NCBI RefSeq assembly: GCF_036365525.1
Contig: NC_090409.1
Span: forward strand, 39,504,437-39,568,436
DNA from: Heterodontus francisci
Taxonomy: Eukaryota
Reading direction: 5' to 3'
Length of the DNA: 64,000 nt
The notes beneath the pieces were generated by a model, which was not told where the DNA came from, did no database searches, and saw only the letters and a list, made by a program, of their open reading frames with translations. The position numbers and the translations under genes were made by a program. Positions 130 through 55,049 of this stretch are shown here, one piece after another (the first letter of the stretch is position 1; each line of letters begins with the position of its first letter).

Positions 130-250
130 GTCCTGGACCCTCTACTGGATTGGTAGTTGGATTGGTCATCGCAATTCTGGTTCTTGTTTGCATAATTCTT
201 GTTCTTCTTTGCATAATTCTGGTTTTCATAATCCAAAACCGACAAAGATG
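130..250 (+). CDS. Transmembrane exon of B7/butyrophilin-like IgSF paralog A (5' part of gene lies left of the window)
   Basis: ctctag|GT acceptor and TG|gtgagt donor. Reads (G)PGPSTGLVVGLVIAILVLVCIILVLLCIILVFIIQNRQR(W). Inverted homolog of 14795-14900. Confidence 0.85.
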
Positions 251-1395
251 GTGAGTTCCAGAATGATCTGCAGTTCCCATTGTTAATTCTAGTTTTGTTT
301 TATTATATTTGGTGTTGTGGAAATGTTGTGTACACTGATACACTTTGTGCTGTGTAGGATGTTTCAATGCTGCATTATCCAGTCACTTCCAGCTTGTTGT
401 CATCCTCTAGCTGCTGAACTGAAGGTGAAGAGCAGGAATGTGCGGCTCCCTCTATCACACAGTTAATAGACACTCGCCTAATCTCTGCAGCAAACAACTC
501 ACCAGCCTACACCTAAAATCCCCTTGTCCCCTCTCCTCTGACTTTTCACCAGCCTCTGATCCTTGCTCTGTTCCCCAGTCACTGACTCCATCCCCTTCCC
601 TGGCCACTGTCTGAGGCTGAACCAGACTGTTCACAACCTCGGAGTCCTATCAGACCCTGAGCTGAGCTTCTGACTCCATATTCTCCCATCACTCAAATCC
701 CACCTACCTCCGCTTCTGTGATGTACCCTGTGTCCACTCTCATCCCTTGACCTGACCATCAGTGGTTTTGATCACTAACAATAAAATATGTTGCATTTCT
801 CTGCCTCCCTCAACATCCACATCTCCCTGCCCATCTCTTGCCCATCTGCCAGTTGTGGGGGGGAAACTATTGCAGATTCTCTAACTCTGTCCTCTGACTC
901 TTTTTTCCCCATCACAATATTTCTGCCTCCGTCAGCCTGTTTGGTCACTGCTGGGTCGGGTTTGATCACATCAGGGAATATCCTGTCCATCTGACTCCTC
1001 TCAATAATTCAGGATCAGTCTGGAGAGTCTGGACATTCCCAGCCTCCTCCTGTCTGATCTGATCCCCATCATCTTCAGCTCAGTGTTAACTGAGATCCTC
1101 ATCAATTCTTCTTAATCTCCAATGTTGAGGTGAGCTGTCATTTTTCTATTGGTCTGGTTCCTCGGTTAGCACAGGTCCTGTGGAGTGTCCAGCTCTTGCC
1201 CATTGCCTCCTCTCCTCTGCACTCTGTGCTCCATCACCGTGCAGCTCCTGTGACCCATTTTCCAGCTGCCATTGGGGCCCAGGAGGTTGAGTGTAATTTA
1301 ATCGGTCTGTGCTCCTGAACAGCTCCTTTACACACTTGTACAAAGTGTTGGATTCTTTTAATGTAACCTGAACTCTGCTGTTTTTTCCCTCCCAG

Positions 1396-1564
1396 GAAAG
1401 CGAACAAACACAACATCAATCACAATGAAGCATCTAATGTCATCCCTTTGACAGGGGTGACTTGTTTAGGTAGCAAGGTCCCATGTTTCACAACAGCACC
1501 TGAGCATCAGAATGGAGCAGCTGGAGAACAAAACCTTCTGGGGAACGGGGCTGTCCAGCACTAA
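1396..1564 (+). CDS. Terminal cytoplasmic exon of IgSF paralog A
   Basis: Polypyrimidine tract plus cccag|G. Phase matches the TM exon (TG|G=Trp). Open frame KANKHNINHNEASNVIPLTGVTCLGSKVPCFTTAPEHQNGAAGEQNLLGNGAVQH to TAA at 1562-1564, conserved in paralog 13459-13633. Confidence 0.8.
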
Positions 1565-6879: not shown

Positions 6880-8080
6880 TCACTTATCTCTCTGCTACCT
6901 GTGGGAACTTGCTGTGTGTAAATTGGTGAGAAAGACACTGTATAAATGGGAGAAACTGAAACTGAATTTTACCTTTTGGAGATACATTGAACTGTTGGTT
7001 GGGGCTCTCTCCTCATGTTGCTCTGATTTGGAACATGTTTGACTGTCCGTGTGGCCTCAAGACACACGACTTTTAATGGAATCCATACTTCAGGATAAAC
7101 TAGATCTTCCTCATTGTTGTGAGTGAGTTTACTTCAGTACCCAGGACACATTGATCACTCCATTTAGTTGCTGTTGGCCTTGTTTCAGTATCTGAGACAC
7201 ATTGAATGTCCTCAAGGCTGTGGCTTTTTCACCTCTATTATAATCCCCACTTGTTATCTCTACCCCGGTGAGCAGAGGTGAGAATTCCAGTCTCTGAATA
7301 CTGGGTTTACATCCAGCAGGGAACTGGTACCCGATGGGAGCGGAGAGTCAACCCACCACCCATTGTATCTACCCAGACTCTCCTGGTAGGGCGTTGTTAG
7401 TCAGGATAAGGACCTGTCTATATAAAGAAAGAGTCTTCCTTATGGAGCACAATCTACTGGGTGTAAAAGCAGTGGAAGGAATCAGCTGCCTCATTTTAAA
7501 ATGATATATTAATTCCTGAGATGTGGGTGTCACTGGCAAGGCTGGTATTTATTGTCCATCCCGAGACACCCCTTGTGAAGGTGGTGCTGGGTCTTCTTGA
7601 ACCGTTTCAGTCCCGTGTGGTGAAGGTGCTCCCGCGGTGCCGTTAGGGAGGGAGATCCAGGATTTTGACCCAGTGACGATGAAGGAACGGCCGATATATC
7701 TCCAAGTTGGGACGGTGTGTGTGTGACTCGGATGGGAACATGGAGGCGATGGTGTTCCCATGCTCCTGCTGCCCTTGTCCTTCTCGGGGAGGCTGGAGGT
7801 TGTGGGTTTGTGAGGTTTTATTGAAGAATGTGGGACTGGGAACAGAAGAGAAAGAAGACTTGTTATCCTCCTTGTCCTGTCACCCTCCTCTAGGAAACCT
7901 CAATCCCAGACAATAAATTCATTCATTAAATAAAAAACACCTTTACAATAAATACAACTGCTTTTCCCATTCCAATAAACACTTTACCCCAATTATTCCT
8001 TCTCTGATATTCCTTACTGTGATTTGCCCCTCAATAAACTGAACTTTCTAAATTTGGTCAGTGTGACCTTTCACCTCCTG
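6880..8080. repeat. Direct segmental duplication, copy 1 (partner ~27780-28970)
   Basis: Near-identical sequence. ORF-track pairs 7549..7761/28436..28648 and 7707..7916/28594..28803. Confidence 0.9.
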
Positions 8081-8639
8081 ACACCCTTTTCAATTTCATT
8101 GTTTCGGATTACATTGGAGATACAGCAGAGAAACAGGTCATTCTTTTCCTCAATTTTAAATTATTCATTCTTGGAATGTGGGCACTGTTACCAAGGACAG
8201 CATTTATTGCCCATCCTTAATTGTCCCTGACAAGGTGGCAGTGAGCTTCCTTCTTGAACCGCTGCAGTCCATGTGGTGGATTTACACCCACAGTTCTGTC
8301 CTGTAATTTTGCTGTCGAGGTTTGATAAAACTGAGTGTCTTGCTCGGCCATTTCAGAGGGCAGTTAAGAGTTAACCACATTGCTGTGGGTCTGGAGTTAC
8401 TTGTAGACCAGACCAGACCAGGTAAGGGCGGTAGATTTACCTTCCCGAAAGGATATTAGTGAATCAGATGGGTTTTTACAACAATCGGTAATGGTCATCT
8501 TTAAACTAGCTTTTTAATTCCAGATTTAAGTGAATTCAAATTTCACCATCTGCTCTGGTGAGATTCGTAATTATCGAGTTTCCTATTATCACATTTCTAT
8601 TCTTCTCTCCCCTCCCCTGGACAGCCTCCTGACAGGGCC

Positions 8640-12199: not shown

Positions 12200-13118
12200 T
12201 GTTTGGACCGAGGCGGGAGGAGTGCACTGTTAATTCAGTCCCGCTTCTCCACAGATCACAATATATTCTTTAAGTTTTCCATTTGTTGAAACAATTCCCC
12301 AGAATAAAACACACTAACCAGGTTTCTTTACTAAACAAAATTAACAGATTATAAAACAATTCTTAACTAGTAATGCAGTAAAATAATATCACAGATCAAA
12401 TTTTTAAATATCCAACATTAGATTTTAAAATGTCCCCTTTACCTTAGTTCCTTCACACTCACACATTCCTATACATAAATCAGTTAACTGGAAAAAGAAA
12501 AAGAATTTTTAGATTAGAGCTCTGTTACAGACAAAAACACAAATAGATCACGTGTCCACCCCAAAAAGAATAGCAGATGAGACTCACTGCACCAAAGAAG
12601 CAGACAGTCCAACGTCTAAGCAACTGTTACAGAAACTTCCAGAATTAGTTCTCTTCAGGCAGTGTTGAAAAGCAATTTAGCTGGCCTTGTTAAAATGCAG
12701 GAACATGACAAATTAACATGCTGAACTTCAGAGTCTTTGAGGGAATTGAGAGTAAAAGCACTGGGTTGTAGTCTTCTGTTCTTCCTTGGAATTCTTTCCT
12801 TTTTCTGTCCTTCTTTGGCACTTTAGTAGCACTTGACTTTTGTCTCCTTCCAGAAGGTATCACACACATGCACTGACTGACAACCAAACAGCTTGGCAGT
12901 TCTCTGCCCACCCAGATGTTCTCTGTTGTTACTGGGCTTGTCAATTTCTGCCCTTTGCCATGGCTTCTGTTCTAAGCCGAGCCCAACCAGGTGACAAACC
13001 GTTGCCAATCATCCCTCACTGTCTTCTTGAGTGAAAAACATTTAGCTTAATTTTAAATTCCTTTATTTTATTAAATAATTTTTTAAAAGTCACTTTCATA
13101 AAACCACTCGCTCATAAA
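12200..13118 (-). mobile_element. LTR paralogous to 1895-3019, without adjacent PBS or internal region
   Basis: Reverse-complement homology, including the LTR-end motif gtgggactgaattaacagtgcac. Confidence 0.55.
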
Positions 13119-13458
13119 GAGGATATTTTGGAAGTTACCATCTCACACAGGGAGTGATCAATGGGTTTCACAGCTGAAGTTGGTCCTGTGTGTTCCTGAG
13201 ACTGGGTTTGGACACAGTGTGTATCAGTAATACTGAGATATAATGTAATATCAATCGGACAGGTTTTCTAGTAAAGGGACAACACTGTCACTGGGTGATT
13301 ATCTCAAGACTCTGCTGGTCAGAGGGGTTTGTGCAGAGTGGGAAGTGATTGTTGATCCCGATCCTGAGCTCAGACTTTCCACCAGGATTCACTGGATAAC
13401 CACAATACTGGGCTGATTTTCCCCTCCCCGACCCAGGCTCAGTGCAGTGTAAACTCAG

Positions 13459-13633
13459 TTAGTGCTGGACAGCCCCGTTCCCCAGAAGGTTTTGTTCTCC
13501 AGCTGCTCCATTCTGATGCTCAGGTGCTGTTGTGAAACATGGGACCTTGTGACCTAAACAAGTCACCCCTGTCAAAGGGACGACATGAGATGCTTCATTT
13601 TGATTGATGCTGTGATGCTTTTGAACACAATTC
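13459..13633 (-). CDS. Paralog B terminal cytoplasmic exon
   Basis: ctcccag|G acceptor; (W)NCVQKHHSINQNEASHVVPLTGVTCLGHKVPCFTTAPEHQNGAAGEQNLLGNGAVQH*. Confidence 0.8.
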
Positions 13634-16600
13634 CTGGGAGAAAAAAAACAGCAGAGTTCAGGTTACATTAAAAGAATCCAACACTTTGTACAAGTGTGTA
13701 AAGGAGCTGTTCAGGAGCACAGACCGATTAAATTACACTCAACATCCTGGGCACCAATGGCAGCTGGAAAATGGGTCACAGGAGCTGCACGGTGATGGAG
13801 CACAGAGTGTAGAGGAGAGGAGGCTTATAGAGGAGGCAATGGGCAAGAGCTGGACACTCCACAGGACCTGTGCTGACCGAGGCACCAGACCAATAGAAAA
13901 ATGACAGCTCACCTCAACATTGGAGATTAAGAAGAATTGACGAGGATCTCGGTTAACACTGAGCTGAAGATGATGGGGATCAGATCAGACAGGAGGAGGC
14001 TGGGAATGTCTGTACTCTCCACACTGATCCTGAATTATTGAGAGGAGTCACAGATGGACAGGACATTCCCTGATGTGATCAAACCCGACCCAGCAGTGAC
14101 CAAACAGGCTGACGGAGGCAGAAATATTGTGATGGGGGAAAAAGAGTCAGAGGACAGAGTTAGAGAATCTGCAATAGTTTCCCCCCCACAACTGGCAGAT
14201 GGGTAAGAGATGGGCAGGGAGATGTGGATGTTGAGGGAGGCAGAGAAATGCAACATATTTTATTGTCAGTGATCAAAAGCACTGATGGTCAGGTCAAGGG
14301 ATGAGAGTGGACACAGGGTATATCACAGAAGCGGAGGTAGGTGGGATTTGAGTGATGGGGAGAATATGGAGTCAGAAGCACAGCTCAGGGTCTGATAGGA
14401 CTCAGAGGTTGTGAACAGTCTGGTTCAGCCTCAGACAGTGGCCAGGGAGGGGGATGGAGTCAGTGACTGGGGAACAGAGCAAGGATCAGAGGCTGGTGAA
14501 AAGTCAGAGGAGAGGGGCCAAGGGGATTTTAGGTGTAGGCTGGTGAGTTGTTTGCTGCAGAGATTAGGCGAGTGTCTATTAACTGTGTGATAGAGGGAGC
14601 CGCACATTCCTGCTCTTCACCTTCAGTTCATTAGCTAGAGGATGACAACAAGCTGGAAGTGACTGGATAATGCAGCATTGAAACATCCCACACAGCACAA
14701 AGTGTATCAGTGTACACAACATTTCCACAACACCAAATAGAATAAAACAAAACTAGAATTAACAATGGGAACTGCAGAACATTCTAGAACTCACCATCTT
14801 TGTCGCTTTTGGATTATGAAAACTATAAATCCCTGAAGAAGAAGAAGAAAAAGAATTCCGACAACCAATCCAACTACTGCTCCAGTAGAGGGTCCAGGAC
14901 CTAGAGACAGAATGAAGCCGTTAACAGACTGCGACACACTAAACAAAACTAACAGCAGAGACTGTCAGCACCTAGTGTTTCAGAACCATCCCCAGTACAA
15001 ACACATCCCTGGTCAATTCTAGTCCTGGAGGGATGTGGGAGATTAAACACCAATAAACAGCCGCAGACACAGGAAGCCACCCCACAGCTCGACTTTCTTA
15101 CACACCCACAATGTGATCAATATATGGTTTCCAATGGAGATAACCAGACCCTGACCAGCAGCAGCCTCCCTTTAATTAAACCCAACAGCCCGCTGAAATA
15201 AAGCAGGAATTTAAAATAATTTGCCGTTTGGGTAAACCACAGGATTGGATGGAACGCTGGTTTACAGTGGGATCAGTATTACTTTCCACTGACTTCAATG
15301 CTGAGGAGTCCTGGGGCCTATGGGGAACCGGTGGGGTGTAGTGGGACTGTTACTGGACTAGTACTCCAGAGCCCAGGTGAATGCTCTGGGGACAGGGGTT
15401 TGAATCCCACCCACAGCAGATGGTGAAATTTGAATTTAATTAATAAAATCAGTAATTTAAAATAAAAAGCTAGAATAATGGTGACCATGAAAACAGTCGA
15501 TTTGTTCATGAATGTCCTTCAGAGAAAGAAATCTGCTGGTCTGGCCTACACGTAACTCCAGACTCACAGCAATATGGTTAACTCTGAACTGCCCTCTGAA
15601 ATGGCCGAGCAAGCCACTCAGTTCAACAGCAATTAGGGATGGGCAATAAATGCTGGCCTGGCCAGTGACGCAGACATCCCACTAACATGAATAAAATAAA
15701 ACAAAGTGACTGCTGACAATGCAACCCACTGCCAACATCAGAGTGCTCCCAGCTTCACACATGTGCAGATCAGAGTCTTGCTGTTAGTACAGTGCTGCCC
15801 ATGTGCAGTCTACGTCAGCACCCGGTTTACCAGGACTTATTCATGTCTACGCTCAAACATCATTGTGTACTGCAATGTCTGCTCACCGCTCACCCCCAGC
15901 CTCGCTTCATCTCCCCTCCCCACCCCACCCACTCACTCCACACTTCACACCTCCACCTATCTGTGGGCCATTCACTCCAGCCTCCCCACTCCCTCTGCCA
16001 CCCCACGATTGCTGCCTTTCTTCCTCGCACAGAGACAGAAAAGATAAGCAGGGGAGGAGAGGGGGAGGGGAGCAGAGGGATGGCAGAGGGAATGAAGCAG
16101 CGATGCCAGGAGCAAGTGGTGAGTAGACTGCTGCGGTAGGCAGCGATGATGGCAGGAGGGAGCGAGGTACTGATGGAGGTGGCGACGGCAGGAGGGAGCG
16201 AGGTACTGATGGAGGTGGCGATGTCAGGAGGGAGCGAGGTACTGCTGGGGGTCGGATGGAGGTCGTGATGTCAGGAGGGAGCGAGGTACTGCTGGGGGTG
16301 GGATGGACGTGGCAAAGGCAGGAGGGAGCGAGGTACTGTTGGGGGTGGGATGGAGGTGACGAAGGCAGGAGGGAGCGAGGTACTGATTGAGGTGGCGAAG
16401 GCAGGAGGGAGCGAGGTACTGATGGAGGTGGGATGGAGGTAGTGATGTCAGGAGGGAACGAGGTACTGTTGGGGGTAGGATGGAGGTAGCGAAGGCAGGA
16501 GGGAGCGAGGTACTGATGGGGGTGGGATGGAGGTGGCGAAGGCAGGAGGGAGCGAGGTACTGATGGAGGTGGCGATGGCAGGAGGGAGCGAGGTACTGCT

Positions 16601-19600
16601 GGGGGTGGGATGGAGGTGGCGATGGCAGGAGGGAGCGAGGTACTGATGGGGGTGGGATGGAGGTGGCGAAGGCAGGAGGGAGCGAGGTACTGATGGAGGT
16701 GGCGATGGCAGGAGGGAGCGAGGTACTGCTGGGGGTGGGATGGCGATGTCAGGAGGGAGCGAGGTATTGCTGGGGGTGGGATGGAGGTGGTGATGGCAGG
16801 AGGGAGCGAGGTACTGTTGGGGGTGGGATGGAGATGGCGATGGCAGGAGGGAGCGAGGTACTGTTGGGGGTGTGATGGAGGCAGTGATCACAGCCACTGT
16901 GGGCATTTGTGTTTCATTTGTTTTGTGATAAATTGAGCGTCGCCATCTTTATTACTGGCAGCTGCCAAAAAAGGTCACAGACAGCGACGTTTCAGTGGAT
17001 CAGGCTGCATTTTCACATATGCAAGTATTGCGACACCTAGTGGATGAATTGTCAGAAAATGCAGCAAAAGAATAAAAAACTCCCTCCTGACTGTATACCA
17101 CTGTGCCCCCACCTCGGGTGGGTCTGTCCTGCCAGTGGGACAAGACATACCCAGGGATGGTGATAGAGGAGTCTGGGATGTAGGGTTGATTCTGTGAGTG
17201 TGACTGTCTCACACAGCTCGCCCAACATGGAGACCAGTCTCCAGAGGTCAGTGAGGGGGACTTTGCAGTGTTGACTGGGCTGGGTTTGCCTTTGCTGTGT
17301 CCTTATTCGATTCCTGGGTCACAGCCAGTGGGCCAGTTTTATTCTTGTTTTTCTTTCTAGTGGTTTGATACAAACTGATTGAAGTGGCCGAGCAAATCAG
17401 AGGGCAGTTAAAAGTCAACCAGGTTAATGTGGGACAGGAGTCACATATAGACCAGACCGGGTAAGGACGGCAGGTTTCCTTCCCGAGAGGGACATTAGTG
17501 AACCAGTTGGGTTTTCCAACAATCCAACAGCTTCATGGTCACTTTTATTGGGACCAACTTTATATTTCCAGATTTATTTTAAACTGAATTTCAATTCTGA
17601 AAGTGCCATGGTGGGATTTGAAGCCACGTTCTCTAGATTATTAGTCCAGGCCTCTGGATTACTAGTCGAGTAACATAACCACTGCACTGCCGTACCCATA
17701 AAATCAGAGAGTAAATGCAGAATACCTGAAACAGAAACCTCTCACCTGTTACAGAGAGATGGACTGAATCAGTTTGTTGCCATTGATAGTGCTCACCGAT
17801 CCTCTTGTAAATCTGACACTGATACTCATTCTGGTCTGACTGCCTGAGGTCAGAGATCATTAGTGACCAGTTGCCTTGTTCCAGTTGATCTTGGAACAGG
17901 TTTGTTCTGTTTCTGAACTGTGGGTCTTGTTGTGTTAAATCATCGTTCCCATCGATAAACTTGTGTAAAATTTCACGATTGGATATCCACCAAATTACCT
18001 GTAATTCAGAGACTGGGACATTCCCTTTGTAGATACAGGGCAGCACAACCTGCTCCCCAAGGAACCCAGAAACTGGAAAAGATTGAAAGTATTTATCCAC
18101 AGATATAACCTCCCTGCTGGTACATTCCATCCCAAGCTTCACATGGTTACACTGCGATGCTTGATTTACAAGAAGCACTGATCAGTAACTCACTGCTTTC
18201 ATTTCTGTGGGAAGGTTAAAGGTCAGCAATGCAGTATTTATAATGACAAGTCTCCAGTACAGTGTACACTATTCTTGTCATTTTTAAAATGGAAACATCT
18301 CCGTGTCACACACTGAAACAAGTAAATATCTACATTTTTACAATTTAACGCTGGTTTTACAACTGGGTCAATATTACTTGCCGTTGACCTCAATTAGCAT
18401 TGCACCAATCCCAGTTTCCCAACTGGAGGGTTCGGTTAAAATTGTACCGAATCTTTTCACAGACTCCCAGAAACACTGATGCTAGTGGGAAGCAGGAATC
18501 CTCAGAGTTCTGTATCAGAGGGACAGGAAGGTGAGTCTCAGAAACAGAAATAACAATTGCAGGTAGTTTAAGGAGCAGTTACAGGTAACGGTGTCCCACA
18601 TCACTCACTCTCACAGAATCATTCATTGGTAAAATATCACAGCATTTCAAACCTTCCAATATTACTACCTGTCTATCCAGCATGATCAAATGTAAAATCT
18701 AAAAACACATGCAGTAGTTTAGAAATAGATTTACCTGGTACAGGTGTGTTCGGTACAGGTGTACGAGCTCGCTCTAAAGAAAACATCATGTGTTTAGTAT
18801 TGTGTGTGAAACAAACTGCAGAAATGTTCAAAGACTCTATCGGGCTGGAGGGAAACACATCCCGGGAGGAACGAGACTTGGGTCAAACTGATCAGGAACA
18901 GGGTCGGCAGAGTGAAAAATCCAACAGGATTGCATTCACTTTGAGGGATAGAATGGAAGTTTTCCAGAGTTACCCCCAACAGGATCATTCCCAGCAGACT
19001 ACACCCACCTGTGGAGAGAATTCCCACAGGATCCTGGGCGACTGGGATACACTTTCAAGGTAAGTGCACTGGGTCTTGTAAAGGCTGCCTGAGGGGTGCT
19101 ATGGACCCCACCTCCTGCACCCCAACATCTGGAGACAGATGGAGCACGTTTCTGGAGAGTGAGAGCAGCTTGATAGCACCGTTAACTCCTTCCATCACCC
19201 AGTTTAGCAGCTCTGTCCTTCAGGGCTCAGCCAGCTCGGTCAGTGGTGGGATTACAGAGTGACCCTTGGTGATGGAAAGTGAAGTCCCCACTCAGTACAT
19301 TCTGTGTCCTTGTTACCCTCAGTGCTTCCTCCAAGTGGTGTTCAACATGGAGGAGAACTGATTCATCAGCTGAGGGAGGGCAGTAGGTGGGAATCAGCAG
19401 GAGGTCTCCAGGCCCATGTTTGACCTGAAGCTGTGAGATTTCATGGGGTTCAGAGTCAATGTTGAGGAGTCCTGGGGTCACTGACTCCAGACTGGATACC
19501 ACTGTGTCCCCACCTCTGGTGGGTCTGTCCTGCAGGTGCGACAGAACATACCCAGGGATGGTGATAGAGGGGTCTGGGATGTCGGGTTGATTCTGTGATG

Positions 19601-21705
19601 ATGACTCTGTCACACAGCTCTCCCAACATGGACACCAGTCTCCAGATGTCAGTGAGGGGAACATGGCAGTGTCAACTGGGCTGCATTTGCCTTTGCTGTG
19701 TCCTGATTCAATATGTGTGTCACAGCCAGTGGGCCGTTCAATTTTATTCCTGTTTTCCTTTCCAGTGGTTTGATACAAACTGATTGAAGTGGCCGAGCAG
19801 GTCAGAGGGCAGTTAAAAGTCAACCAGGTTAATGTGGGACTGGAGTCATATAGACCAGACCGGGTAAGGACGGCAGGTTTCCTTCCCGAGAGGGACATTA
19901 ATGAACTGAATTTAAATTCAGTTCAAAATAAATCTGGAAATTTTAAATTCTGAAAGTGCCATGGTGGGATTTGAACTCAAGTTCTCGGGATTATTAGACC
20001 AGGCCTCTGGATTACTAGTCTAGTAACATAACCACTGCACTACTGCACCCATAAAATCAGAGAGTAAATGCAGAATACCTGAAACAGAATCCTCTCACCT
20101 GTTACAGAGAGATGGACAACTTGATGAAAGACTGGACTCGACCTCTGCAGAATCTGACATCGATACTCATTCTGGTCTGACTGCCTGAGGTCAGAGATCA
20201 TGAGTGACCAGTTGCCTTGTTCCAGTTGATCTTTGAACAGGTTTGTTCTGTTTCTGAACTGTGGGTCTTGTTGTGTTAAATCATCGTTCCCATCGACAAA
20301 ATTATGTAAAACTCCGCGCTTGAATATCCACCAAATTACCTGTAACTCAGAGACTGGGACATTCCCTTTGTAGGTACAGGGCAGCACAACCTGCTCCCCA
20401 AGGAACCCAGAAACTGAGTAACCTGGAAAAGATTGAAAGTATTTATCCACAGATATAACCTCCCTGCTGGTACATTCCATCCCAAGCTCCACATGGTTAC
20501 ACTGCGATGCTTGATTTACAAGAAGCATTGATCAGTAACTCACTGCTTTCATTTCTGTGGGAAGGTTAAAGGTCAGGCATTAAGGGCCTTCAACTAAAAC
20601 CAGCTTGTGCTGGATATTTGTATCCACAGAGCAGCTGGACAGCACTTTGAATCGTGTGTTTCCCATTGTACACATGCTGGGAGAACACATCAGGATCTTG
20701 GTCACCCTGCCCACCTCCCCCCTTTGGGAGAACAATGACAGACTGGGGGTGCACAATGTGAGGTGGAGCTCAGGAGCAGAAAACTGACCCTGAAATGTAA
20801 AGACAGGAACGGGTGGGGGAGGGGGTACCCGAGGATGTGGAAAGGGCTTTGGACAGGTTGGGGGGACAATGACGGATGAGTACACTGTGTAGGGGGTGAG
20901 GCAGCACCTGATGGTCTGAAAGGGGCCGAGGCAATGTGGATCCTCACCTCTCCACCACTAACCTGTCAGACCTTGCTCCTCACCCTAATACGGCCAGACT
21001 CTGCCCCCTCCCAGGACCCAAAACACAATCCCCAATCCTGATGACCCTACTCCCCATGCTCAGAGGCAATTCCCAGTTCTATTTGATCCAGGACTGTCCC
21101 AGACTCCTGATCCCAGTGCTCAGGACCCCATCCCAGTACCACTGGACCCCAGTCACCCATCCCAGTGTCACTGAGTGTTGCTCAGTGTCCAGATTCCACT
21201 GTTCACATCACAGGGGTTAATCTGAAGACATTAACTGCCTTCCTTTCAGGTCTCATGATCATTATGTGTAATGTGAATCGACTGTGTCCACTCCCTCAAT
21301 GGGCCCACTCACAGTGAACACAGCACCTTAAAGCAAGATGAATTCCTGATATAATGAAGACTATTCCCCAGTAATATACACATTACTGATTTCAGTCCCA
21401 GACACCCAGACAAATGTTCTTTCCAGGAGATAGCTAACTGCAGTCTGTATAAATTCACAAGGTTAGCACCATCCAGGAAGATAAATCCTGATATAATCCA
21501 TGTCACCAGCAGCCCCGAACTCTGCTGAAATGTGAGAGCAGTCACAGCGTTTACCTGAAACAGCAGCAACAGCATTTAACAGCAGCAGCAGGAGGAGGAG
21601 TTTCTGTAAGTTGGGTCCCTGCAACAAGAAAACACAGTTACCCCCCTTTACCACAGTTTCTTGCTGCTCATGTCCATTACTGAGCCGGGACAGGACACAG
21701 TCCAT
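13459..21705 (-). CDS. Spliced 6-exon gene: B7/CD276/butyrophilin-like type I membrane protein with two IgV domains (paralog B, 373 aa)
   Basis: Exons of 151+324+39+327+106+175 = 1122 nt. All junctions GT-AG and phase-compatible (1,1,1,1,2). No internal stop. Architecture: signal peptide, V, linker, V, TM, tail. Confidence 0.85.
14795..14900 (-). CDS. Paralog B transmembrane exon
   Basis: ctag|GT ... TG|gtgagt; (G)PGPSTGAVVGLVVGILFLLLLQGFIVFIIQKRQR(W). Confidence 0.85.
15330..15705 (+). mobile_element. tRNA-derived SINE; related copies on - strand at ~17380-17695 and ~19790-20050
   Basis: A-box/B-box-like head (ggtggggtgtagtgg...ggtttgaatccc), LINE-derived tail gggatgggcaataaatgctggc, A-rich end. 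Confidence 0.6.
16140..16880. repeat. Intronic G-rich minisatellite (~36/48-bp units, core GGCAGGAGGGAGCGAGGTACTG)
   Basis: About 17 tandem imperfect copies seen directly. Confidence 0.9.
17746..18072 (-). CDS. Paralog B second IgV exon (B7-like V-set)
   Basis: ttttccag| ... |gtgag, 327 nt, phase 1-1. VVLPC..VIWW..QDPQFRNRTNLFQDQLEQGNWSLMISDLRQSDQNEYQC: canonical B-strand C, C-strand W, F-strand DxxxYxC. Confidence 0.92.
18735..18773 (-). CDS. Paralog B 39-nt Pro/Thr-rich linker micro-exon
   Basis: tttctttag| ... CAG|gtaaat; (E)RARTPVPNTPVP; phase 1-1. Confidence 0.7.
18840..19700 (-). mobile_element. CR1/L2-group LINE endonuclease fragment (family also at ~17080-17260 -, ~11050-11305 +, ~46510-47085 +)
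   Basis: ITIPGYVLSHLQDRPTRGG..LLIPTYCPPSADESVL..GDF APE-like motifs. Confidence 0.75.
20099..20422 (-). CDS. Paralog B first IgV exon (B7-like V-set)
   Basis: ttttccag|GT ... CAG|gtgag, 324 nt, phase 1-1. GYSVSGFLGEQVVLPCTYKG..FRNRTNLFKDQLEQGNWSLMISDLRQSDQNEYRC..VHLSVT. Confidence 0.92.
21555..21705 (-). CDS. Leader (signal peptide) exon 1
   Basis: ACCATGG start; MDCVLSRLSNGHEQQETVVKGGNCVFLLQGPNLQKLLLLLLLLNAVAAVS; G|gtaaac phase-1 donor matching the V exon. Exact start is ambiguous because in-frame ATGs also lie upstream in the repeat. Confidence 0.8.
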
Positions 21706-24700
21706 GGTCCCTCTCCCCATTACTGACCTCCCTCCCTCCCGGATCTGAGACACATTGAGACCGGGAGCAGCCCTGACACAGTCCATGGTCCCTCTCCCCA
21801 TTACTGACCCTCCCTCCCTCCCTCCCGGCTCTGAGACACATTGAGACCGGGAGCAGCCCTGACACAGTCCATGGTCCCTCTCCCCATTACTGACCCCCCT
21901 CCCTCCCGGCTCTGAGACACATTGAGACTGGGAGCAGCCCTGACACAGTCCATGGTCCCTCTCCCCATTACTGACCCTCCCTCCCTCCCGGCTCTGAGAC
22001 ACATTGAGACCGGGAGCAGCCCTGACACAGTCCATGGTCCCTCTCCCCATTACTGACCCCCCTCCCTCCCGGCTCTGAGACACATTGAGACCGGGAGCAG
22101 CCCTGACACAGTCCATGGTCCCTCTCCCCATTACTGACCCTCCCTCCCTCCCTCCCGGCTCTGAGACACATTGAGACCGGGAGCAGCCCTGACACAGTCC
22201 ATGGTCCCACTCCCCATTACTGACCCTCCTCCCTCCCGGCTCTGAGACACATTGAGACCGGGAGCAGCCCTGACACAGTCCATGGTCCCTCTCCCCATTA
22301 CTGACCCTCCCTCCCTCCCTCCCGCCTCTGAGACACATTGAGACCGGGAGCAGCCCTGACACAGTCCATGGTCCCTCTCCCCATTACTGACCCTCCCTCC
22401 CTCCCTCCCGGCTCTGAGACACATTGAGACCGGGAGCAGCCCTGACACAGTCCATGGTCCCTCTCCCCATTACTGACCCCCCTCCTTCCCGGCTCTGAGA
22501 CACATTGAGACCGGGAGCAGCCCTGACACAGTACATGGTCCCTCTCCCCATTACTAACCCTCCCTCCCGGCTCTGAGACACATCGAGACCGGGAGCAGCC
22601 CTGACACAGTCCATGGTCCCTCTCCCCATTACTGACCCCCCTCCCTCCCGGCTCTGAGACACATTGAGACCGGGAGCAGCCCTGACAGTCCATGGTCCCT
22701 CTCCCCATTACTGACCCCCCTCCCTCCCGGCTCTGAGACACATTGAGACCGGGAGCAGCCCTGACACAGTCCATGGTCCCACTCCCCATTACTGACCCCC
22801 CTCCCTCCCGGCTCTGAGACACATTGAGACCGGGAGCAGCCCTGACACAGTCCATGGTCCCTCTCCCCATTACTGACCCCCCTCCCTCCCGGCTCTGAGA
22901 CACATTGAGACCGGGAGCAGCCCTGACACAGTCCATGGTCCCACTCCCCATTACTGACCCCCCTCCCTCCCGGCTCTGAGACACATTGAGACCGGGAGCA
23001 GCCCTGACACAGTCCATGGTCCCGCTCCCCATTACTGACCCCCCTCCCTCCCGGCTCTGAGACACATTGAGACCGGGAGCAGCCCTGACACAGTCCATGG
23101 TCCCTCTCCCCATTACTGACCCCCCTCCCGGCTCTGAGACACATTGAGACCGGGAGCAGCCCTGACACAGTCCATGGTCCCTCTCCCCATTACTGACCCC
23201 CCTCCCTCCCGGCTCTGAGACACATTGAGACCGGGAGCAGCCCTGACACAGTCCATGGTCCCACTCCCCATTACTGACCCCCCTCCCTCCCGGCTCTGAG
23301 ACACATTGAGACCGGGAGCAGCCCTGACACAGTCCATGGTCCCTCTCCCCATTACTGACCCCCCTCCCTCCCGGCTCTGAGACACATTGAGACCGGGAGC
23401 AGCCCTGACACAGTCCATGGTCCCACTCCCCATTACTGACCCCCCTCCCTCCCGGCTCTGAGACACATTGAGACCGGGAGCAGCCCTGACACAGTCCATG
23501 GTCCCGCTCCCCATTACTGACCCCCCTCCCTCCCGGCTCTGAGACACATTGAGACCGGGAGCAGCCCTGACACAGTCCATGGTCCCTCTCCCCATTACTG
23601 ACCCCCCTGCCTCCCGGCTCTGAGACACATTGAGACCGGGAGCAGCCCTGACACAGTCCATGGTCCCACTCCCCATTACTGACCCCCCTCCCTCCCGGCT
23701 CTGAGACACATTGAGACCGGGAGCAGCCCTGACACAGTCCATGGTCCCGCTCCCCATTACTGACCCCCCTCCCTCCCGGCTCTGAGACACATTGAGACCG
23801 GGAGCAGCCCTGACACAGTCCATGGTCCCGCTCCCCATTACTGACCCTCCTCCCTCCCGGCTCTGAGACACATTGAGACCAGGAGCAGCCCTGACACAGT
23901 CCATGGTCCCTCTCCCCATTACTGACCTCCCTCCCGGCTCTGAGACACATTGAGACCGGGAGCAGCCCTGACACAGTCCATGGTCCCTCTCCCCATTACT
24001 GACCCCCCTCCCTCCCGGCTCTGAGACACATTGAGACCGGGAGCAGCCCTGACACAGTCCATGGTCCCACTCCCCATTACTGACCCCCCTCCCTCCCGGC
24101 CCTGACACAGTCCATGGTGCCTCTCCCCATTACTGACCCCCCTCCCTCCCGGCTCTGAGACACATTGAGACCGGGAGCAGCCCTGACACAGTCCATGGTC
24201 CCTCTCCCCATTACTGACCCCCCTCCCTCCCGGCTCTGAGACACATTGAGACCGGGAGCAGCCCTGACACAGTCCATGGTCCCTCTCCCCATTACTGACC
24301 CCCCTCCCTCCCGGCTCTGAGACACATTGAGACCGGGAGCAGCCCTGACACAGTCCATGGTCCCTCTCCCCATTACTGACCCTCCCTCCCGGCTCTGAGA
24401 CACATTGAGACCGGGAGCAGCCCTGACACAGTCCATGGTCCCACTCCCCATTACTGACCCCCCTCCCTCCCGGCTCTGAGACACATTGAGACCGGGAGCA
24501 GCCCTGACACAGTCCATGGTCCCGCTCCCCATTACTGACCCCCCTCCCTCCCGGCTCTGAGACACATTGAGACCGGGAGCAGCCCTGACACAGTCCATGG
24601 TCCCTCTCCCCATTACTGACCCCCCCTCCCTCCCGGCTCTGAGACACATTGAGACCGGGAGCAGCCCTGACACAGTCCATGGTCCCACTCCCCATTACTG

Positions 24701-26090
24701 ACCCCCCTCCCTCCCGGCCCTGACACAGTCCATGGTGCCTCTCCCCATTACTGACCCCCCTCCCTCCCGGCTCTGAGACACATTGAGACCGGGAGCAGCC
24801 GACACAGTCCATGGTCCCTCTCCCCATTACTGACCCCCCTCCCGGCTCTGAGAGACATTGAGACCGGGAGCAGCCCTGACACAGTCCATGGTCCCACTCC
24901 CCATTACTGACCCCCCTCCCTCCCGGCCCTGACACAGTCCATGGTCCCGCTCCCCATTACTGACCCCCCTCCCTCCCGGCTCTGAGACACATTGAGACCG
25001 GGAGCAGCCCTGACACAGTCCATGGTCCCACTCCCCATTACTGACCCCCCTCCCTCCCGGCCCTGACACAGTCCATGGTCCCTCTCCCCATTACTGACCC
25101 CCCTCCCTCCCGGCTCTGAGACACATTGAGACCGGGAGCAGCCCTGACACAGTCCATGGTCCCTCTCCCCATTACTGACCCCCCTCCCTCCCGGCTCTGA
25201 GACACATTGAGACCGGGAGCAGCCCTGACACAGTCCATGGTCCCTCTCCCCATTACTAACCCTCCCTCCTGGCTCTGAGACACATTGAGACCGGGAGCAG
25301 CCCTGACACAGTCCATGGTCCCTCTCCCCATTACTGACCCTCCATCCCGGCTCTGAGACACATTGAGACCGGGAGCAGCCCTGACACAGTCCATGGTCCC
25401 TCTCCCCATTACTGACCCCCCTCCCTCCCGGCTCTGAGACACATTGAGACCGGGAGCAGCCGACACAGTCCATGGTCCCTCTCCCCATTACTGACCCCCC
25501 TCCCGGCTCTGAGACACATTGAGACCGGGAGCAGCCCTGACACAGTCCATGGTCCCACTCCCCATTACTGACCCCCCTCCCTCCCGGCCCTGACACAGTC
25601 CATGGTCCCGCTCCCCATTACTGACCCCCCTCCCTCCCGGCTCTGAGACACATTGAGACCGGGAGCAGCCCTGACACAGTCCATGGTCCCTCTCCCCATT
25701 ACTGACCCCCCTCCCTCCCGGCTCTGAGACACATTGAGACCGGGAGCAGCCCTGACACAGTCCATGGTCCCACTCCCCATTACTGACCCCCCTCCCTCCC
25801 GGCCCTGACACAGTCCATGGTCCCGCTCCCCATTACTGACCCCCCTCCCTCCCGGCTCTGAGACACATTGAGACCGGGAGCAGCCCTGACACAGTCCATG
25901 GTCCCTCTCCCCATTACTGACCCTCCCTCCCTCCCGGCTCTGAGACACATTGAGACCGGGAGCAGCCCTGACACAGTCCATGGTCCCACTCCCCATTACT
26001 GACCCCCCTCCCTCCCGGCTCTGAGACACATTGAGACCGGGAGCAGCCCTGACACAGTCCATGGTCCCTCTCCCCATTACTGACCCCCCG
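21695..26090 (-). repeat. ~81-bp minisatellite, ~55 units, overlapping the start codon
   Basis: Unit (minus) GGGGGGTCAGTAATGGGGAGAGGGACCATGGACTGTGTCAGGGCTGCTCCCGGTCTCAATGTGTCTCAGAGCCGGGAGGGA, with 77-85 bp and ~53 bp variants. Confidence 0.97.
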
Positions 26091-26119
26091 GGTGTGAGAC
26101 ACTGACAATACCTGCAGTG

Positions 26120-26308
26120 CTTTTCTATCCATTGCCCCTGATCCTCAATCACCAGCTCCCGGAGACAGTCACATTAAACACTTTTCCATCCATTGCCCCT
26201 GATCCTCCCACCAGCTCCCGGAGACAGTCACATTAAACACTTTTCCATCCATTGCCCCTGATCCTCAATCACCAGCTCCCGGAGACAGTCACATTAAACA
26301 CTTTTCTA
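26120..26308. repeat. ~60-bp tandem triplication
   Basis: Three copies of tccattgcccctgatcctc..caccagctcccggagacagtcacattaaacactttt. Confidence 0.9.
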
Positions 26309-26810: not shown

Positions 26811-27779
26811 AATATCTCAGACTTTGTAAAAACATATACAGAGTTTCACCCTTTCAGCTCCATTCTCCTCCCCCTGTGCTGTTTCTATTCTATTTTATTC
26901 TCTGACTGTTCCTCAGAACTGAATCCACATCTTCCAGGGTGTTTTCTTTCACTGAATTTGAGATCCAGCTGTGGTTCAGTTGGTAGCTCTCCAGGACTTG
27001 GGCACAAAAATCAAGCTTTATTTGAGGGTGGGTGCACAGGGAGCCCCGCACTGCCGGAGGGCGCGGTGCAGAGGGAGCTGTCTGAGAAACGGGGAGGGGT
27101 GGGGGGGGTGTTCTGGGTGGTCACTATCACATTGCTGGCTGTGGGATCTTGCTGTGCACACACTGACTGCTGCATTTCCTACATTACAACAGTCAATACA
27201 CTTCAGAAAAAGTACATCATTGGCTGGGAAGCATTTTCAGATGCCGGTGGTCGTGAAAAGCAAGACTTGCGAGACTTTTTTCTCCCGCCACATCAGCTCC
27301 ATCAGTGAGAGCTCGAACCTCCCTCTCTGTTACATCTCCCAGACTTTACCCACTCAGCCCATCTGCTGCTGAAGCCCTCATTCCTTCCTTTCTTACCTCC
27401 ACACTCAATTATTCCAACCCTCTCCTGGCCTGAATGAGGCTCCACATTGAGGATTGAACCTGACAAACGTTTACCTTCACTGTCAAAACTCACATGAAGA
27501 ATGGATGTTTATGTGGGCAAACAGAGGGCTGCTGGTATCCACGTGTCAGACATGACTCAGTGGGTAACACTCACCTCAGTCAGAAGGTACTGCAGTACTG
27601 AGTGAGTGCTGCACTGTCAGAGGTACTGTCTTTCAGGTGAGAGGTTAAACCGAGGGCCCTGTCTGCCCTCTTTGATGTGAAGGATCCCACAACCACAAAG
27701 CCAGATCCTCCTGGTGTATTTGTCAATGTTTAGAATTTAACCAACACATAAAACAGTTTAGTGCAGACATTTATCACAT

Positions 27780-28970
27780 GGTTATTTGTGGGAACTTGTT
27801 GCGTGTAAATTGGTGAGAAAGACACTGTATAAATGGGAGAAACTGAAACTGGAATTTACCTTTCGGAGATACATTGAACTGTTGGTTGGGGCTCTCTCCT
27901 CGTGTTGCTCTGATTTGGAACATGTTTGACTGTCCCTGTGGCCTCAAGACACACGACTTTTAATGGAATCCATACTTCAGGATAAACTAGATCTTCCTCA
28001 TTGTTGTGAGTGAGTTTACTTCAGTACCCAGGACACATTGATCACTCCATTTAGTTGCTGTTGGCCTTGTTTCAGTATCTGAGACACATTGAATGTCCTC
28101 ATGGCTGTGGCCTTTTCACCTCTATTATAATCCCCACTTGTTATCTCTACCCCGGTGAGCAGAGGTGAGAATTCCAGTCTCTGAATACTGGGTTCACATC
28201 CAGCAGGAAACTGGTACCCGATGGGAGCAGAGAGTCAACCCACCACCCATTGTATCGACCCGGACTCTCCTGGTAGGGTGTTGTTAGTCAGGATAAGGAC
28301 CTGTCCATATAAAGAAAGAGTCTTCCTTATGGAGCACAATCTACTGGGTGTAAAAGCAGTGGAAGGAATCAGCTGCCTCATTTTAAAATGATATATTAAT
28401 TCCTGAGATGTGGGTGTCACTGGCAAGGCTGGTATTTATTGTCCATCCAGAGACGCCCCTTGTGAAGGTGGTGCTGGGTCTTCTTGAACCGTTTCAGTCC
28501 CGTGTGGTAAAGGTGCTCCCACGGTGCCGTTAGGGAGGGAGATCCAGGATTTTGATCCAGTGACGATGAAGGAACGGCCGATATATCTCCAAGTTGGGAC
28601 GGTGTGTGGGTGACTCGGAGGGGAACATGGAGGCGATGGTGTTCCCATGCTCCTGCTGCCCTTGTCCTTCTAGGGGAGGCTGGAGGTTGTGGGTTTGTGA
28701 GGTTTTATTGAAGAATGTGAGACTGGGAACAGAAGAGAAAGAAGACTTGTTATCCTCCTCGTCCTGTCACCCTCCTCTGGGAAACCTCAATCCCAGACAA
28801 TAAATTCATTCATTAAATAAAAAACACCTTTACAATAAATACAACTTCTTATTCCATTAAACATTTCCCCCAACAATTCCTTCTCAGAGCTTCCTTAATG
28901 TGAGTTATCCCTCAATAAAATAAACTTTCTGAAGTTGGCCATTCACTTTGACCTTTCACCTCCTCACACA
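27780..28970. repeat. Direct segmental duplication, copy 2 (partner ~6880-8080)
   Basis: Near-identical sequence. Confidence 0.9.
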
Positions 28971-29019
28971 TATTTAAATTTCAACTGTTTTATCTTTGAA
29001 CTGTTTCTGCTCGGGTCAG

Positions 29020-32514: not shown

Positions 32515-32662
32515 CTGAAACAGCAGCAACAGCATTTAGCAGCAGCAGGAGGAGGAGTTTCTGTAAGTTGGGTCCCTGCAACAAGAAAACACAGTTACCC
32601 CCCTTTACCACAGTTTCTTGCTGCTCATGTCCATTTCTGAACCGGGACAGGAGACAGTCCAT
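32515..32662 (-). CDS. Leader exon copy 2 (orphan or alternative first exon)
   Basis: MDCLLSRFRNGHEQQETVVKGGNCVFLLQGPNLQKLLLLLLLNAVAAVS, intact G|gtaaac donor. No V exon found between it and 21705. Confidence 0.55.
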
Positions 32663-33095
32663 GGTCCCGCTCCCCATTACTGACCCCCCTCCCTCCCTCC
32701 CTCCCGGCTCTGAGACACATTGAGACCGGGAGCAGCCCTGACACAGTCCATGGTCCCTCTCCCCATTACTGACCCCCCTCCCTCCCGGCTCTGAGACACA
32801 TTGAGACCGGGAGCAGCCCTGACACAGTCCATGGTCCCTCTCCCCATTACTGACCCCCCTCCCTCCCGGCTCTGAGACACATTGAGACCGGGAGCAGCCC
32901 TGACACAGTCCATGGTCCCTCTCCCCATTGCTGACCCTCCCCCGGGTGTGAGACACATTGAGACCGGGAGCAGCCCTGACACAGTCCATGGTCCCTCTCC
33001 CCATTGCTGACCCTCCCCCGGGTGTGAGACACATTGAGACCGGGAGCAGCCCTGACACAGTCCATGGTCCCTCTCCCCATTACTGACCCTCCCCC
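32655..33095 (-). repeat. Start-codon minisatellite, 6 units
   Basis: Six ccatggtcc cores; the distal units are a 76-bp cacacccgg variant. Confidence 0.92.
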
Positions 33096-34109
33096 GGGTG
33101 TGAGACACTGACAATACCTGCAGCTCCTTTCCCATGGGGAGATGGAGAAGAATCACTTCCTGCTCAGCCGCATGTTCAAGCCGGTCCTGGAGCATGCGAC
33201 CCAGCGAGGGGCGGGGCCTGGGATTTCGGGGCGGGGCCAGGCAATAGGAGCGGCCACTATCTGCATCTGGGCCCATGGTGTGGGGAGGGGCTGTTACTCT
33301 GAGGACAGACAGAGGGAGATCAGTCCCGGTACCTTTCCCCTCTCAGAGGGGATGAAATGAACAGCCGGCAGGGAATCAGCACTTGCTTGTTCTTTGACTC
33401 AAATCCCTTCAGACAGAGGCTGCACCATTATTCCACTCACTCACAACCCCCCCCTTCTCAGTGTGAAAATGGGTCAGTCCAGTCCCCCCGCCGCCATCTG
33501 AGTCACGTGACTGCTGAACCCAATCGGCGGGAATTTGACTTCAAATTAGACCGGAAATGATGTGAATTCTCAGACTTTGTCAAAACAGAAACAGAGTTTA
33601 ACCCTTTCAGCTCCATTCTCCTCCTCCTGTGCTGTTTCTATTCTATTTTATTCTCTGACTGTTCCTCAGAACTGAATCCACATCTTCCAGGGTGTTTTCT
33701 TTCACTGAATTTGAGATCCAGCTGTGGTTCAGTTGGTAGCTCTCCAGGACTTGGGAACAAAAATCAAGGTTAACACAGCAGTGCAGAGAAATTTACAGGC
33801 AACACAAAAATTGGCCTGGTGGTTAATAGTGAGGAGGGAAGCTGGAGACTGCAGGAGGATATTGATGGACTGGTCAGGTGGGCAGAAAAGTTCCAAATGG
33901 AATTTAACCCAGAAAAGAGAGAGGTGATACTTTTTGGGGAAGTCAAACAAGGCAAAGGAATACACAATTAATGGGAAAATACTGAGAAATGTAGAGTAAG
34001 TGAGGGACCTTGGAGTAAATGTCCAGAGATCCTGTCGATAACCACCCTTTCAACCTGTCCTGCTAAGAAGGCATTTGGAATACTTTCCTTTATTAGCAGA
34101 GTATAGAAT

Positions 34110-41880: not shown

Positions 41881-42235
41881 GGGTCAGAAACAGCAGACTG
41901 AGAGAAAAAGGACAGAGCAGAGTCATCTGAACTTCACCGGCCAATCGGGTGAGTCCGCTCTGTCGACCCGCCCACTGTAAACACCACTGTCCAATCGCCT
42001 TCTGATCTCTGATCACCAGCTGCAATCAGCAGTGACGTTTTCGTATTTGTATTTGCGCATGTGCCAAAACAGCGCCACCTGCTGATCGCGTTCTCAACAA
42101 TTGCGGTCATTTTTAAAACCGGATCCAGGTTTTAGCGGCAGATTCCCAGTCTCCTGTGTCCGGGAGGAGATGATCCAGGATCAGGGCAATGGATGGAAAA
42201 ACACTGCAGGTACTGTCAGTGTCTCACACCCGGGG

Positions 42236-43127
42236 GGTCAGTAATGGGGAGCGGGACCATGGACTGTGTCAGGGCTGCTCCCGGTCTCAATGTGTCTCAG
42301 AGCCGGGAGGGAGGGAGGTCAGTAATGGGGAGAGGGACCATGGACTGTGTCAGGGCTGCTCCCGGTCTCAATGTGTCTCAGAGCCGGGAGGGAGGGGGGG
42401 TCAGTAATGGGGAGTGGGACCATGGACTGTGTCAGGGCTGCTCCCAGTCTCCATGTGTCTCAGAGCCGGGAGGGAGGGGGGTCAGTAATGGGGAGCGGGA
42501 CCATGGACTGTGTCAGGGCTGCTCCCGGTCTCAATGTGTCTCAGAGCCGGGAGGGAGGGAGGTCAGTAATGGGGAGAGGGACCATGGACTGTGTCAGGGC
42601 TGCTCCCGGTCTCAATGTGTCTCAGAGCCGTGAGGGAGGGAGGTCAGTAATGGGGAGCGGGACCATGGACTGTGTCAGGGCTGCTCCCGGTCTCAATGTG
42701 TCTCAGAGCCGGGAGGGAGGAGGGTCAGTAATGGGGAGAGGGACCATGGACTGTGTCAGGGCTGCTCCCGGTCTCAATGTGTCTCAGAGCCGGGAGGGAG
42801 AGAGGTCAGTAATGGGGAGAGGGACCATGGACTGTGTCAGGGCTGCTCCCGGTCTCAATGTGTCTCAGAGCCGGGAGGGAGGGAGGTCAGTAATGGGGAG
42901 TGGGACCATGGACTGTGTCAGGGCTGCTCCCGGTCTCAATGTGTCTCAGAGCCGGGAGGGAGGGAGGTCAGTAATGGGGAGCGGGACCATGGACTGTGTC
43001 AGGGCTGCTCCCGGTCTCAATGTGTCTCAGAGCCGGGAGGGAGGGGGGTCAGTAATGGAGAGTGGGACCATGGACTGTGTCAGGGCTGCTCCCGGTCTCA
43101 ATGTGTTTCAGAGCCGGGAGGGAGGGG
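42236..43127 (+). repeat. Start-codon minisatellite, 11 units, with no leader exon behind it (joined to CR1)
   Basis: Same unit and same upstream flank as 26090-26150, in opposite orientation. Confidence 0.95.
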
Positions 43128-47214: not shown

Positions 47215-47567
47215 CTGCAGGAAGGGATGATCCAGGATCGGGGCAATGGGTGGAAAAGCACTGCAGGTACTGTCACTGTCTCACAACCGGGGGGTCAGTA
47301 ATGGGGAGCGGGACCATGGGCTGTGTCAGGGCTGCTCCCGGTCCCAATGTGTCTCAGAGCCGGGAAAGAGGGGTGGGGGTCAGTAATGGGGAGCGGGACC
47401 ATGGGCTGTGTCCTGGCTCACGTTGTGAATTTATACAGACTGCAGTTAGCTGTCTCCTACAAAGAACACTTGTCTGGGTGTCTGGGACTGAAATCAGTAA
47501 TGTGTATATTACTGGGGAATAGTCTTCATTATATCAGGAATTCATCTCCTGCGCTTCACTTTGGGAG
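47215..47567 (+). pseudogene. Deleted leader-region paralog (2 repeat units; signal-peptide body and donor missing)
   Basis: ATGGGCTGTGTCCTGGCTCA jumps directly to the intron-1 sequence ttgtgaatttatacagactgcag, homologous to 21350-21460. Confidence 0.7.
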
Positions 47568-48600: not shown

Positions 48601-48624
48601 TACAGTTACTCTCATATTACATAA

Positions 48625-51943: not shown

Positions 51944-52043
51944 AATTACTCAACTGTTCACCAATCCATTCAACTCAACTTAGTTTTTAAATTAATTTGA
52001 ACGCGGCAAGACTATTCAAAATAACTTGAAATAGCACTACAAC

Positions 52044-52064: not shown

Positions 52065-52068
52065 ATTA

Positions 52069-54747: not shown

Positions 54748-54898
54748 CTGAAACAGCAGCAACAGCATTTAGCAGCAGCAGCAGGAGGAGGAGTTTCTGG
54801 AAGCTGGGTCCCTGCAACAAGAAAACACAGTTACCCCCCTTTACCACCGTTTCTTGCTGCTCATGTCCATTTCTGAGCCGGGACAGGACACAGTCCAT
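54748..54898 (-). CDS. Leader exon copy 3 (orphan or alternative first exon; unexpanded repeat)
   Basis: MDCVLSRLRNGHEQQETVVKGGNCVFLLQGPSFQKLLLLLLLLNAVAAVS, intact phase-1 donor, single ACCATGG unit. Confidence 0.55.
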
Positions 54899-55049
54899 GG
54901 TCCCGCTCCCCATTACTGACCCTCCCGCCCCCCGGGTGTGAGACACTGACAATACCTGCAGCGCATTTCCAACCATTTTCTGACAGAAGCTTCACCATTA
55001 TCACAAACCCTCCTCCCTTCTCAGTGTAGGAATGGTCCAGTCATTAAAA

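Follow-up and report, generated by a model that had tools for sequence, protein, structure and literature searches.

An apparently undescribed V-only B7-like gene cluster of sharks with a variable putative binding face

Gene structure, transcripts and surroundings in the horn shark

We analysed a stretch of 64 kb from the horn shark Heterodontus francisci (the window), and all coordinates are positions in this window. It holds on the minus strand a gene for a membrane protein with two V-set immunoglobulin domains, together with further 5' modules of the same kind and the 3' end of a convergent paralogue (Table 1). A first-pass annotation made from the sequence alone had proposed a six-exon minus-strand model from 21705 to 13459 (exons 21705-21555, 20422-20099, 18773-18735, 18072-17746, 14900-14795 and 13633-13459). 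Its open frame of 373 aa, GT/AG sites and compatible phases hold, but the start in exon 1 does not. The first 29 codons end in a pyrimidine tract followed by AG, with the acceptor at 21619, and the ATG at 21705 was rejected as start codon, being part of the 81-bp repeat unit that fills intron 1. We examined 43 horn-shark RefSeq models, and none begins with this N-terminus. Because of these intron features and the RefSeq models, the approximately 35 residues placed ahead of the signal peptide core are to be regarded as an artefact, namely intron 1 sequence. The corrected start is a 7-codon exon beyond the 81-bp array, and the resulting protein of 351 aa opens with an ordinary signal peptide and matches, without a single difference, RefSeq XP_067874631.1, automatically named 'CD276 antigen homolog isoform X2'. 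RefSeq gives three alternative 5' ends for the gene within the window and in addition an isoform that skips V2. Two more repeats were noted here, a 61-bp repeat (26120-26306) just upstream of exon 1, with unit ATGs resembling the exon-1 start of the paralogues and short upstream ORFs, and a degenerate G-rich 47-bp tandem array (16145-16890) without Ig similarity in the intron between V2 and the transmembrane (TM) exon.

Contigs from four of seven runs (two samples, two studies), which we presumed to be RNA, were compared with positions 16900-21690. In one organism (two runs) the summed contig depth amounts to about 10,000-90,000 in exon bins, whereas unique intron bins reach only tens; high values also occur in those intron bins that contain dispersed repeats. 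Both joints of the linker micro-exon were found, that to V1 in contigs of two runs (X1 and X2) and that to V2 in one run with a short side of 25 letters. Loose ends in three runs carry TM-exon-type letters directly after V, and in one run (X5) exon-1-type letters stand at the signal-exon acceptor (loose end 21623). Given the splice joints and the contrast in depth between exons and introns, we take the runs to reflect transcripts; as contigs cannot separate paralogues, they support the splice forms and not this copy alone. The horn-shark gene is real, spliced and expressed, and a machine annotation of it already exists.

Table 1. Features of the locus in the 64-kb window
Feature	Position	Strand	Support or remark
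Coding exon 1 (7 codons, phase-0 donor)	26112..26132	-	model identical to XP_067874631.1
81-bp tandem array in intron 1, with the ATG first taken as start in every unit	21694..26089	.	repeat scan
N-terminal extension of the first-pass model: 3' end of intron 1, non-coding in the supported model	21619..21705	-	acceptor, RNA loose end, RefSeq N-termini
Signal-peptide exon	21555..21618	-	helix 11-24 in structure model
IgV domain 1 exon	20099..20422	-	joint to micro-exon in RNA contigs, runs X1 and X2
Pro/Thr linker micro-exon, 39 nt	18735..18773	-	joints 18773/20099 and 18072/18735; low-confidence coil in model
IgV domain 2 exon; skipped in RefSeq isoform X5	17746..18072	-	
Transmembrane exon, Gly-spaced start, without charged residue	14795..14900	-	loose ends 17744-17746: TM-exon-type letters directly after V
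Cytoplasmic tail exon and stop, without tyrosine	13459..13633	-	
Alternative coding exon 1 (5 codons), in a RefSeq isoform of the gene	27860..27874	-	
Second copy of the 5-codon alternative exon 1	6973..6987	-	duplicated block 6823-8098 / 27709-28983
5' module 2: exon 1 (33135-33118), short array, signal-peptide exon (32575-32515)	32515..33135	-	RefSeq alternative 5' end of the same gene
5' module 3: exon 1 and signal-peptide exon; next 34 kb without V exon	54748..54976	-	
5' module 4: exon 1 and array, no signal-peptide exon within the window	42189..43126	+	
5' module 5: exon 1 and partial array fused to intron-2 sequence; signal-peptide exon missing	47246..47567	+	
Convergent paralogue, 3' end: TM exon 130-250, tail exon 1396-1564	130..1564	+	inverted duplication

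Regarding the surroundings, the previously claimed two gene bodies and five 5' modules, lying in both orientations, were recovered, but only three of the five modules, all on the minus strand, keep a signal-peptide exon; the two on the plus strand show none within the window. Only two V exons are found in the window. The V exon of the convergent paralogue lies beyond it, and the TM exon of this paralogue matches RefSeq models of single-V 'MOG-like' proteins. The size of the 81-bp array in intron 1 varies between modules, with about 4.4 kb (21694-26089), 11 units (42232-43126), 5 units (32695-33108) and approximately one unit near 54900. Among the long ORFs of 2500-56000, five of which were scanned, no marker gene of an MHC-paralogous region was found. 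The window also contains a LINE (35502-38711, plus strand) with an uninterrupted stop-to-stop frame of 1069 aa holding endonuclease and reverse transcriptase domains, and a fragment with an integrase zinc-binding domain that runs into a LINE-like piece (4861-5496, plus strand). What looks like a decayed LTR or provirus-like element lies at 47582-52678, where direct repeats of about 600 bp (86% identical) surround about 3.9 kb of fragmentary minus-strand ORFs, including one at 50086-50592 whose start resembles a signal peptide, together with a 48-bp array; Pfam gave no significant match for three ORFs of this element. A 43-bp satellite with at least 185 copies (96% matches) occupies 56026-64000 and runs past the window end.

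Domain composition, relatives and distribution of the family

Both V domains are matched by the V-set family of Pfam (PF07686, E 5e-14 and 3e-11), and the 39-nt Pro/Thr exon, the TM exon and the tyrosine-free tail of the original model were all borne out. The last exon does encode the 58 aa given for the tail, but the complete cytoplasmic tail has 63 aa; likewise the DxxxYxC hallmark is present, with Asn-Glu, however, where small or Gly residues are usual. Cysteines occur in the ectodomain only at positions 44, 117, 162 and 235, which are the two canonical ones of each V domain. The AlphaFold model (mean pLDDT 61) consists of two V sandwiches, a low-confidence linker, a single TM helix and a disordered tail. 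A homodimer prediction for V1 scored 0.02 and was counted neither for nor against any reading. Pfam matches of the TM and tail exons to syndecan, podoplanin and scorpion short toxin were below the cut-off and taken as chance.

The absence of an IgC domain, which had likewise been proposed, was confirmed by tblastn and HMM searches in six frames, neither of which located a C exon anywhere in the window. Four B7/BTN-type middle or C segments gave no tblastn match under E 1 and the C-domain HMM nothing under E 0.2, while the control V domains matched the window at E 1e-17. A C domain is found in none of 106 family proteins. The membrane-proximal IgC by which B7 proteins are strictly defined is absent from the gene, and the RNA loose ends read from V straight into TM-type sequence. 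The protein is thus outside the domain definitions of both B7 and butyrophilin.

The V domains are of B7 type, as the first-pass annotation had recognised, their best solved relatives being B7-H4, PD-L1, MOG and CD276. Per domain, the B7-H4 IgV ranks first among solved structures, followed by PD-L1 and MOG, with BTN and CD276 lower. B7-H4/VTCN1 (PDB 4GOS) reaches 63 bits against V1 and a Foldseek E of 2e-10, human CD276 against V1 only 31 bits per V, and the family profile gives 75 bits per domain for the B7-H4 IgV, 57 for PD-L1 and 38 for CD276. B7-H4 and PD-L1, the best single-domain matches in sequence and fold, are single-copy V-C genes, whereas the shark family lacks the C domain and comprises many copies with one to three V domains. 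MOG shares the V-TM layout and matches V1 with 44 bits, and RefSeq names single-V paralogues 'MOG-like'; MOG is a single-copy myelin gene, and the likeness does not amount to orthology. BTN and BTNL proteins have a related V domain (29-37 bits); those shark proteins that were scanned are V-set only by Pfam, without IgC or B30.2 and with the 63-aa tail. Butyrophilins with IgV, IgC and B30.2 are described across jawed vertebrates including sharks (PMC12841164).

In a tree of V domains with 42 rows, a set without named HHLA2, mammalian B7 or mammalian or shark BTN, the shark sequences hold together as a single group (94/99), next to which stand a horn-shark V-C 'CD276 antigen-like' gene and two fish V-only proteins (98/92, long branches). 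The best tree does not join the family with frog VTCN1-like V domains, and such a clade is not rejected (p-AU 0.128); a search for shark VTCN1 with a frog V-C region gave 12 matches, of which the ten named ones were all frog and none shark. Grouping with four fish BTN-type rows, a set chosen after the tree was seen, is rejected at p-AU 0.02. Taken strictly, the term 'butyrophilin-like' is therefore not supported, given this rejection, the missing B30.2 and the rank of the BTN structures below B7-H4 and PD-L1. One-to-one orthology to a described gene is likewise not supported, with at least 14 loci and no IgC. CD276 (B7-H3) is the source of the automatic name. The horn-shark 'CD276 antigen-like' gene, near the family in the tree, has 34% identity in its V-V-C isoform to the protein studied here; it differs by its IgC and by its place on another sequence, of 39.0 Mb as against 44.1 Mb. 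This is a separate V-C B7-like gene of the horn shark (XP_067875583.1, XP_067875586.1); the V domain in its V-V-C isoform is exactly repeated, possibly by a recent exon duplication or an assembly artefact. The gene in the window does not have the profile of a CD276 orthologue, i.e. single-copy, V-C and highly similar to human CD276.

An exhaustive HMM search yielded 4703 representatives at E 0.001 or better. By HMM, 120 of 144 non-family proteins have V domains only, in a search whose V-only query favours such proteins and which includes some fused gene models. Twenty non-family proteins were looked up (17 from ray-finned fish, one from a frog and two from sharks), and several are V-V-TM. The V-linker-V-TM layout, which had been called atypical, is thus not unique, since several ray-finned fish carry V-V-TM proteins of the same V type. 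These fish proteins (e.g. XP_055369852.1, XP_041841782.1, XP_045920656.1 and XP_018940502.1) are V-V-TM or V with a Pro/Thr stalk and bear the same kinds of automatic names, but match at about 45-67 bits per V compared to 170-205 bits within the shark family. They are scattered in the tree, so that loss of the C domain looks repeated. Expansion of B7 paralogues is reported only for turtles and Cladistia in the B7 section of PMC13262535.

A profile search for the family itself returned 75 proteins, of which 73 are named and belong to 12 species of shark, the sawshark Pristiophorus among them. We take these species to represent five orders. Rays and chimaeras contributed none of the 75 matches, which is weak evidence of absence as the search needs shared words. 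Of the 12 species, 9 have forms with two V domains, and models with three are present in the horn shark. A Pro/Thr exon separates V domains in five other species and precedes the TM segment in 33 of 53 post-V strings. Charged TM cores and Yxx[LIMV] after the TM segment were each found in 3 of these 53 strings, a conserved tail motif in 32, across sharks; a GxxxG count of 53/53 was set aside as evidence because it is inflated by the Gly-rich stalk. A separate scan found no ITIM/ITSM/YxxL-type motif in 69 family tails. For the horn shark we count at least 14 RefSeq loci on one 44.1-Mb sequence, a number inferred from RefSeq isoform numbering, and some of the near-identical copies may be duplicates made by the assembly. 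The 17 horn-shark V strings all fall in a single clade (96/84), and the copies have therefore turned over or been homogenised within the lineage. Loci and clade agree with the earlier description of an expanding, rapidly turning-over family; its supposed lineage specificity holds in that the horn-shark copies form their own clade, but the family is not species-specific. The suspicion that it is uncharacterised also stands, as no published description was found by title or abstract; subscription papers and supplements may list the genes. In the basking shark, the annotated model of one family member (XP_078389634.1) runs together with a KRAB/PR-SET 'PRDM7-like' gene. A gene of this kind may thus adjoin the cluster and could serve as a synteny marker.

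Variation on the GFCC' face

Across 56 non-redundant V domains of sharks, the C/C'/F/G strands and loops have an average entropy of 1.64 bits compared to 0.50 bits on A'/B/D/E (p 3e-8), where p-values are descriptive since the variable patches were picked after inspection of the alignment. Of the 20 most variable positions 19 fall in the C/C'/F/G set and none in the A'/B/D/E set. Two N-glycosylation sequons on the D and E strands are nearly fixed, as is the sheet opposite the GFCC' face. A higher variability of loops than of cores is common to all Ig domains. When V1 and V2 of the gene are compared, 18 of 57 bases differ in the CC' and F/FG patches versus 6 of 210 in the flanking introns; two synonymous changes lie inside the CC' patch. 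Over the first 88 codons pN (0.053) is below pS (0.107) and overall dN/dS does not exceed 1, hence blanket positive selection is not supported.

CC' and FG types occur in mixed combinations among the horn-shark V strings. In a site-compatibility test on 17 of these strings, which are predicted proteins including near-duplicates, neighbouring sites were more compatible than distant ones (p 0.003-0.024). The pattern points to recombination or short-segment exchange between copies. The stretch 12459-15030 has an inverted copy at bases 1-2570, which holds the TM and tail exons of the convergent paralogue. Introns of the two copies are 97.5-98.4% identical versus only 83% for the TM exons (130-250 and 14795-14900, with a 15-base length difference), and judging from this comparison the TM exon too seems to have been exchanged or selected.

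Possible function of the family

Our preferred reading, held tentatively and with a little less than even confidence, is that of a B7-type non-signalling ligand diversified on its binding face. A shark multigene family of type I membrane glycoproteins would have arisen from the B7 superfamily through loss of the IgC domain, with the Pro/Thr exon possibly acting as a glycosylated spacer in its place, and duplication or skipping of V exons may set reach and valency. The variable GFCC' face would be the putative contact surface for a partner bound in trans, while glycans would cover the opposite face, and the copies may diversify via duplication and short exchanges of loop segments. The GFCC' face is the contact surface in PD-L1. 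The protein XP_067874631.1 has neither an ITIM/ITAM-type motif nor a charged TM residue; it is therefore most likely a ligand for lymphocyte or NK-type receptors, and the designation 'receptor' is not supported. The conserved tail motif (32/53) suggests an intracellular role, which the ligand model does not explain. More doubtful, though conceivable, is the narrower proposal that this highly expressed cluster supplies the variable ligands of some orphan receptor family on shark lymphocytes, be it CD28-like, NK-type or gamma-delta TCR, or else is a system of self-recognition, as a shark parallel to chicken BG.

Chicken BG proteins have heptad-repeat tails, whereas the shark proteins have one short tail exon, and their V domains carry the two canonical cysteines only, with no extra one at the CDR1 equivalent. 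In PMC5043582, BG is described as a tandem multigene cluster with V-only ectodomains, copy-number change and loop-cassette exchange, in which a cysteine in CDR1 links dimers; from the cassette swaps its authors infer recognition of varying ligands. The sharks share the V-only ectodomain, the tandem cluster and the signs of segment exchange, a likeness of layout and pattern. Variation driven by pathogens, with microbes or parasites binding host surface proteins that serve as decoys or escape variants, has been proposed for some chicken BG and would equally lead one to expect face-restricted variation and segment exchange; the loop-cassette swaps with their inferred varying ligands (PMC5043582) and the lineage-specific clades of copies also fit. 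We consider it unlikely for the shark family, where changes are in CC', F and FG/G, unlike the BG cassettes in CDR1/CDR2-equivalent loops.

Cell adhesion through the GFCC' face is well established, and paralogue-specific pairing of single- or double-V proteins in trans, of the myelin P0 or the CD2/CEACAM type, could serve adhesion or self-recognition. The V-TM layout attracts automatic names such as MOG-like, sodium channel beta-4-like and JAM-like, and Gly-spaced residues begin the TM segment, but B7-H4 and PD-L1 head the sequence and fold searches and quick copy turnover would be unusual for structural adhesion genes, so that we rate this role as slightly less likely still. Signalling by an immune receptor family, via the tail motif or an associated chain, could draw on the retention of that motif across sharks and on ectodomain variation resembling that of paired-receptor families; it is very unlikely with no tyrosine-based motif in the 69 tails (3/53 loose matches in another scan), charged TM cores in only 3/53 and no activating/inhibitory pairs seen. 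About as unlikely is a plain shark orthologue of CD276 or VTCN1, to which the RefSeq name, the B7-H4 IgV as best single-domain structural relative and the frog VTCN1-like clade that was not rejected would point. At least 14 loci are not one-to-one, the IgC is absent, the separate horn-shark V-C gene scores far higher to human CD276, and the best tree pairs the family with that gene and two fish V-only proteins and not with the frog rows.

Of the three traits regarded as 'atypical', one is an artefact and one is common to bony fish, and taken alone the gene is an ordinary annotated member. Of interest is an apparently undescribed shark-wide cluster of V-only B7-like genes with a variable putative binding face. 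Judging from the comparison, clusters of V-only B7-like genes seem to have arisen more than once, in sharks, in ray-finned fish and in birds. Among living animals whose immunity relies on antibodies and TCRs, sharks are the oldest group. Several CD28-family genes of cartilaginous fish still await functional and ligand studies (PMC11599192). The variable-face shark family, now scattered under at least eight inconsistent automatic names, offers a concrete candidate set of ligands, and its members are probably fast-changing immune ligands.
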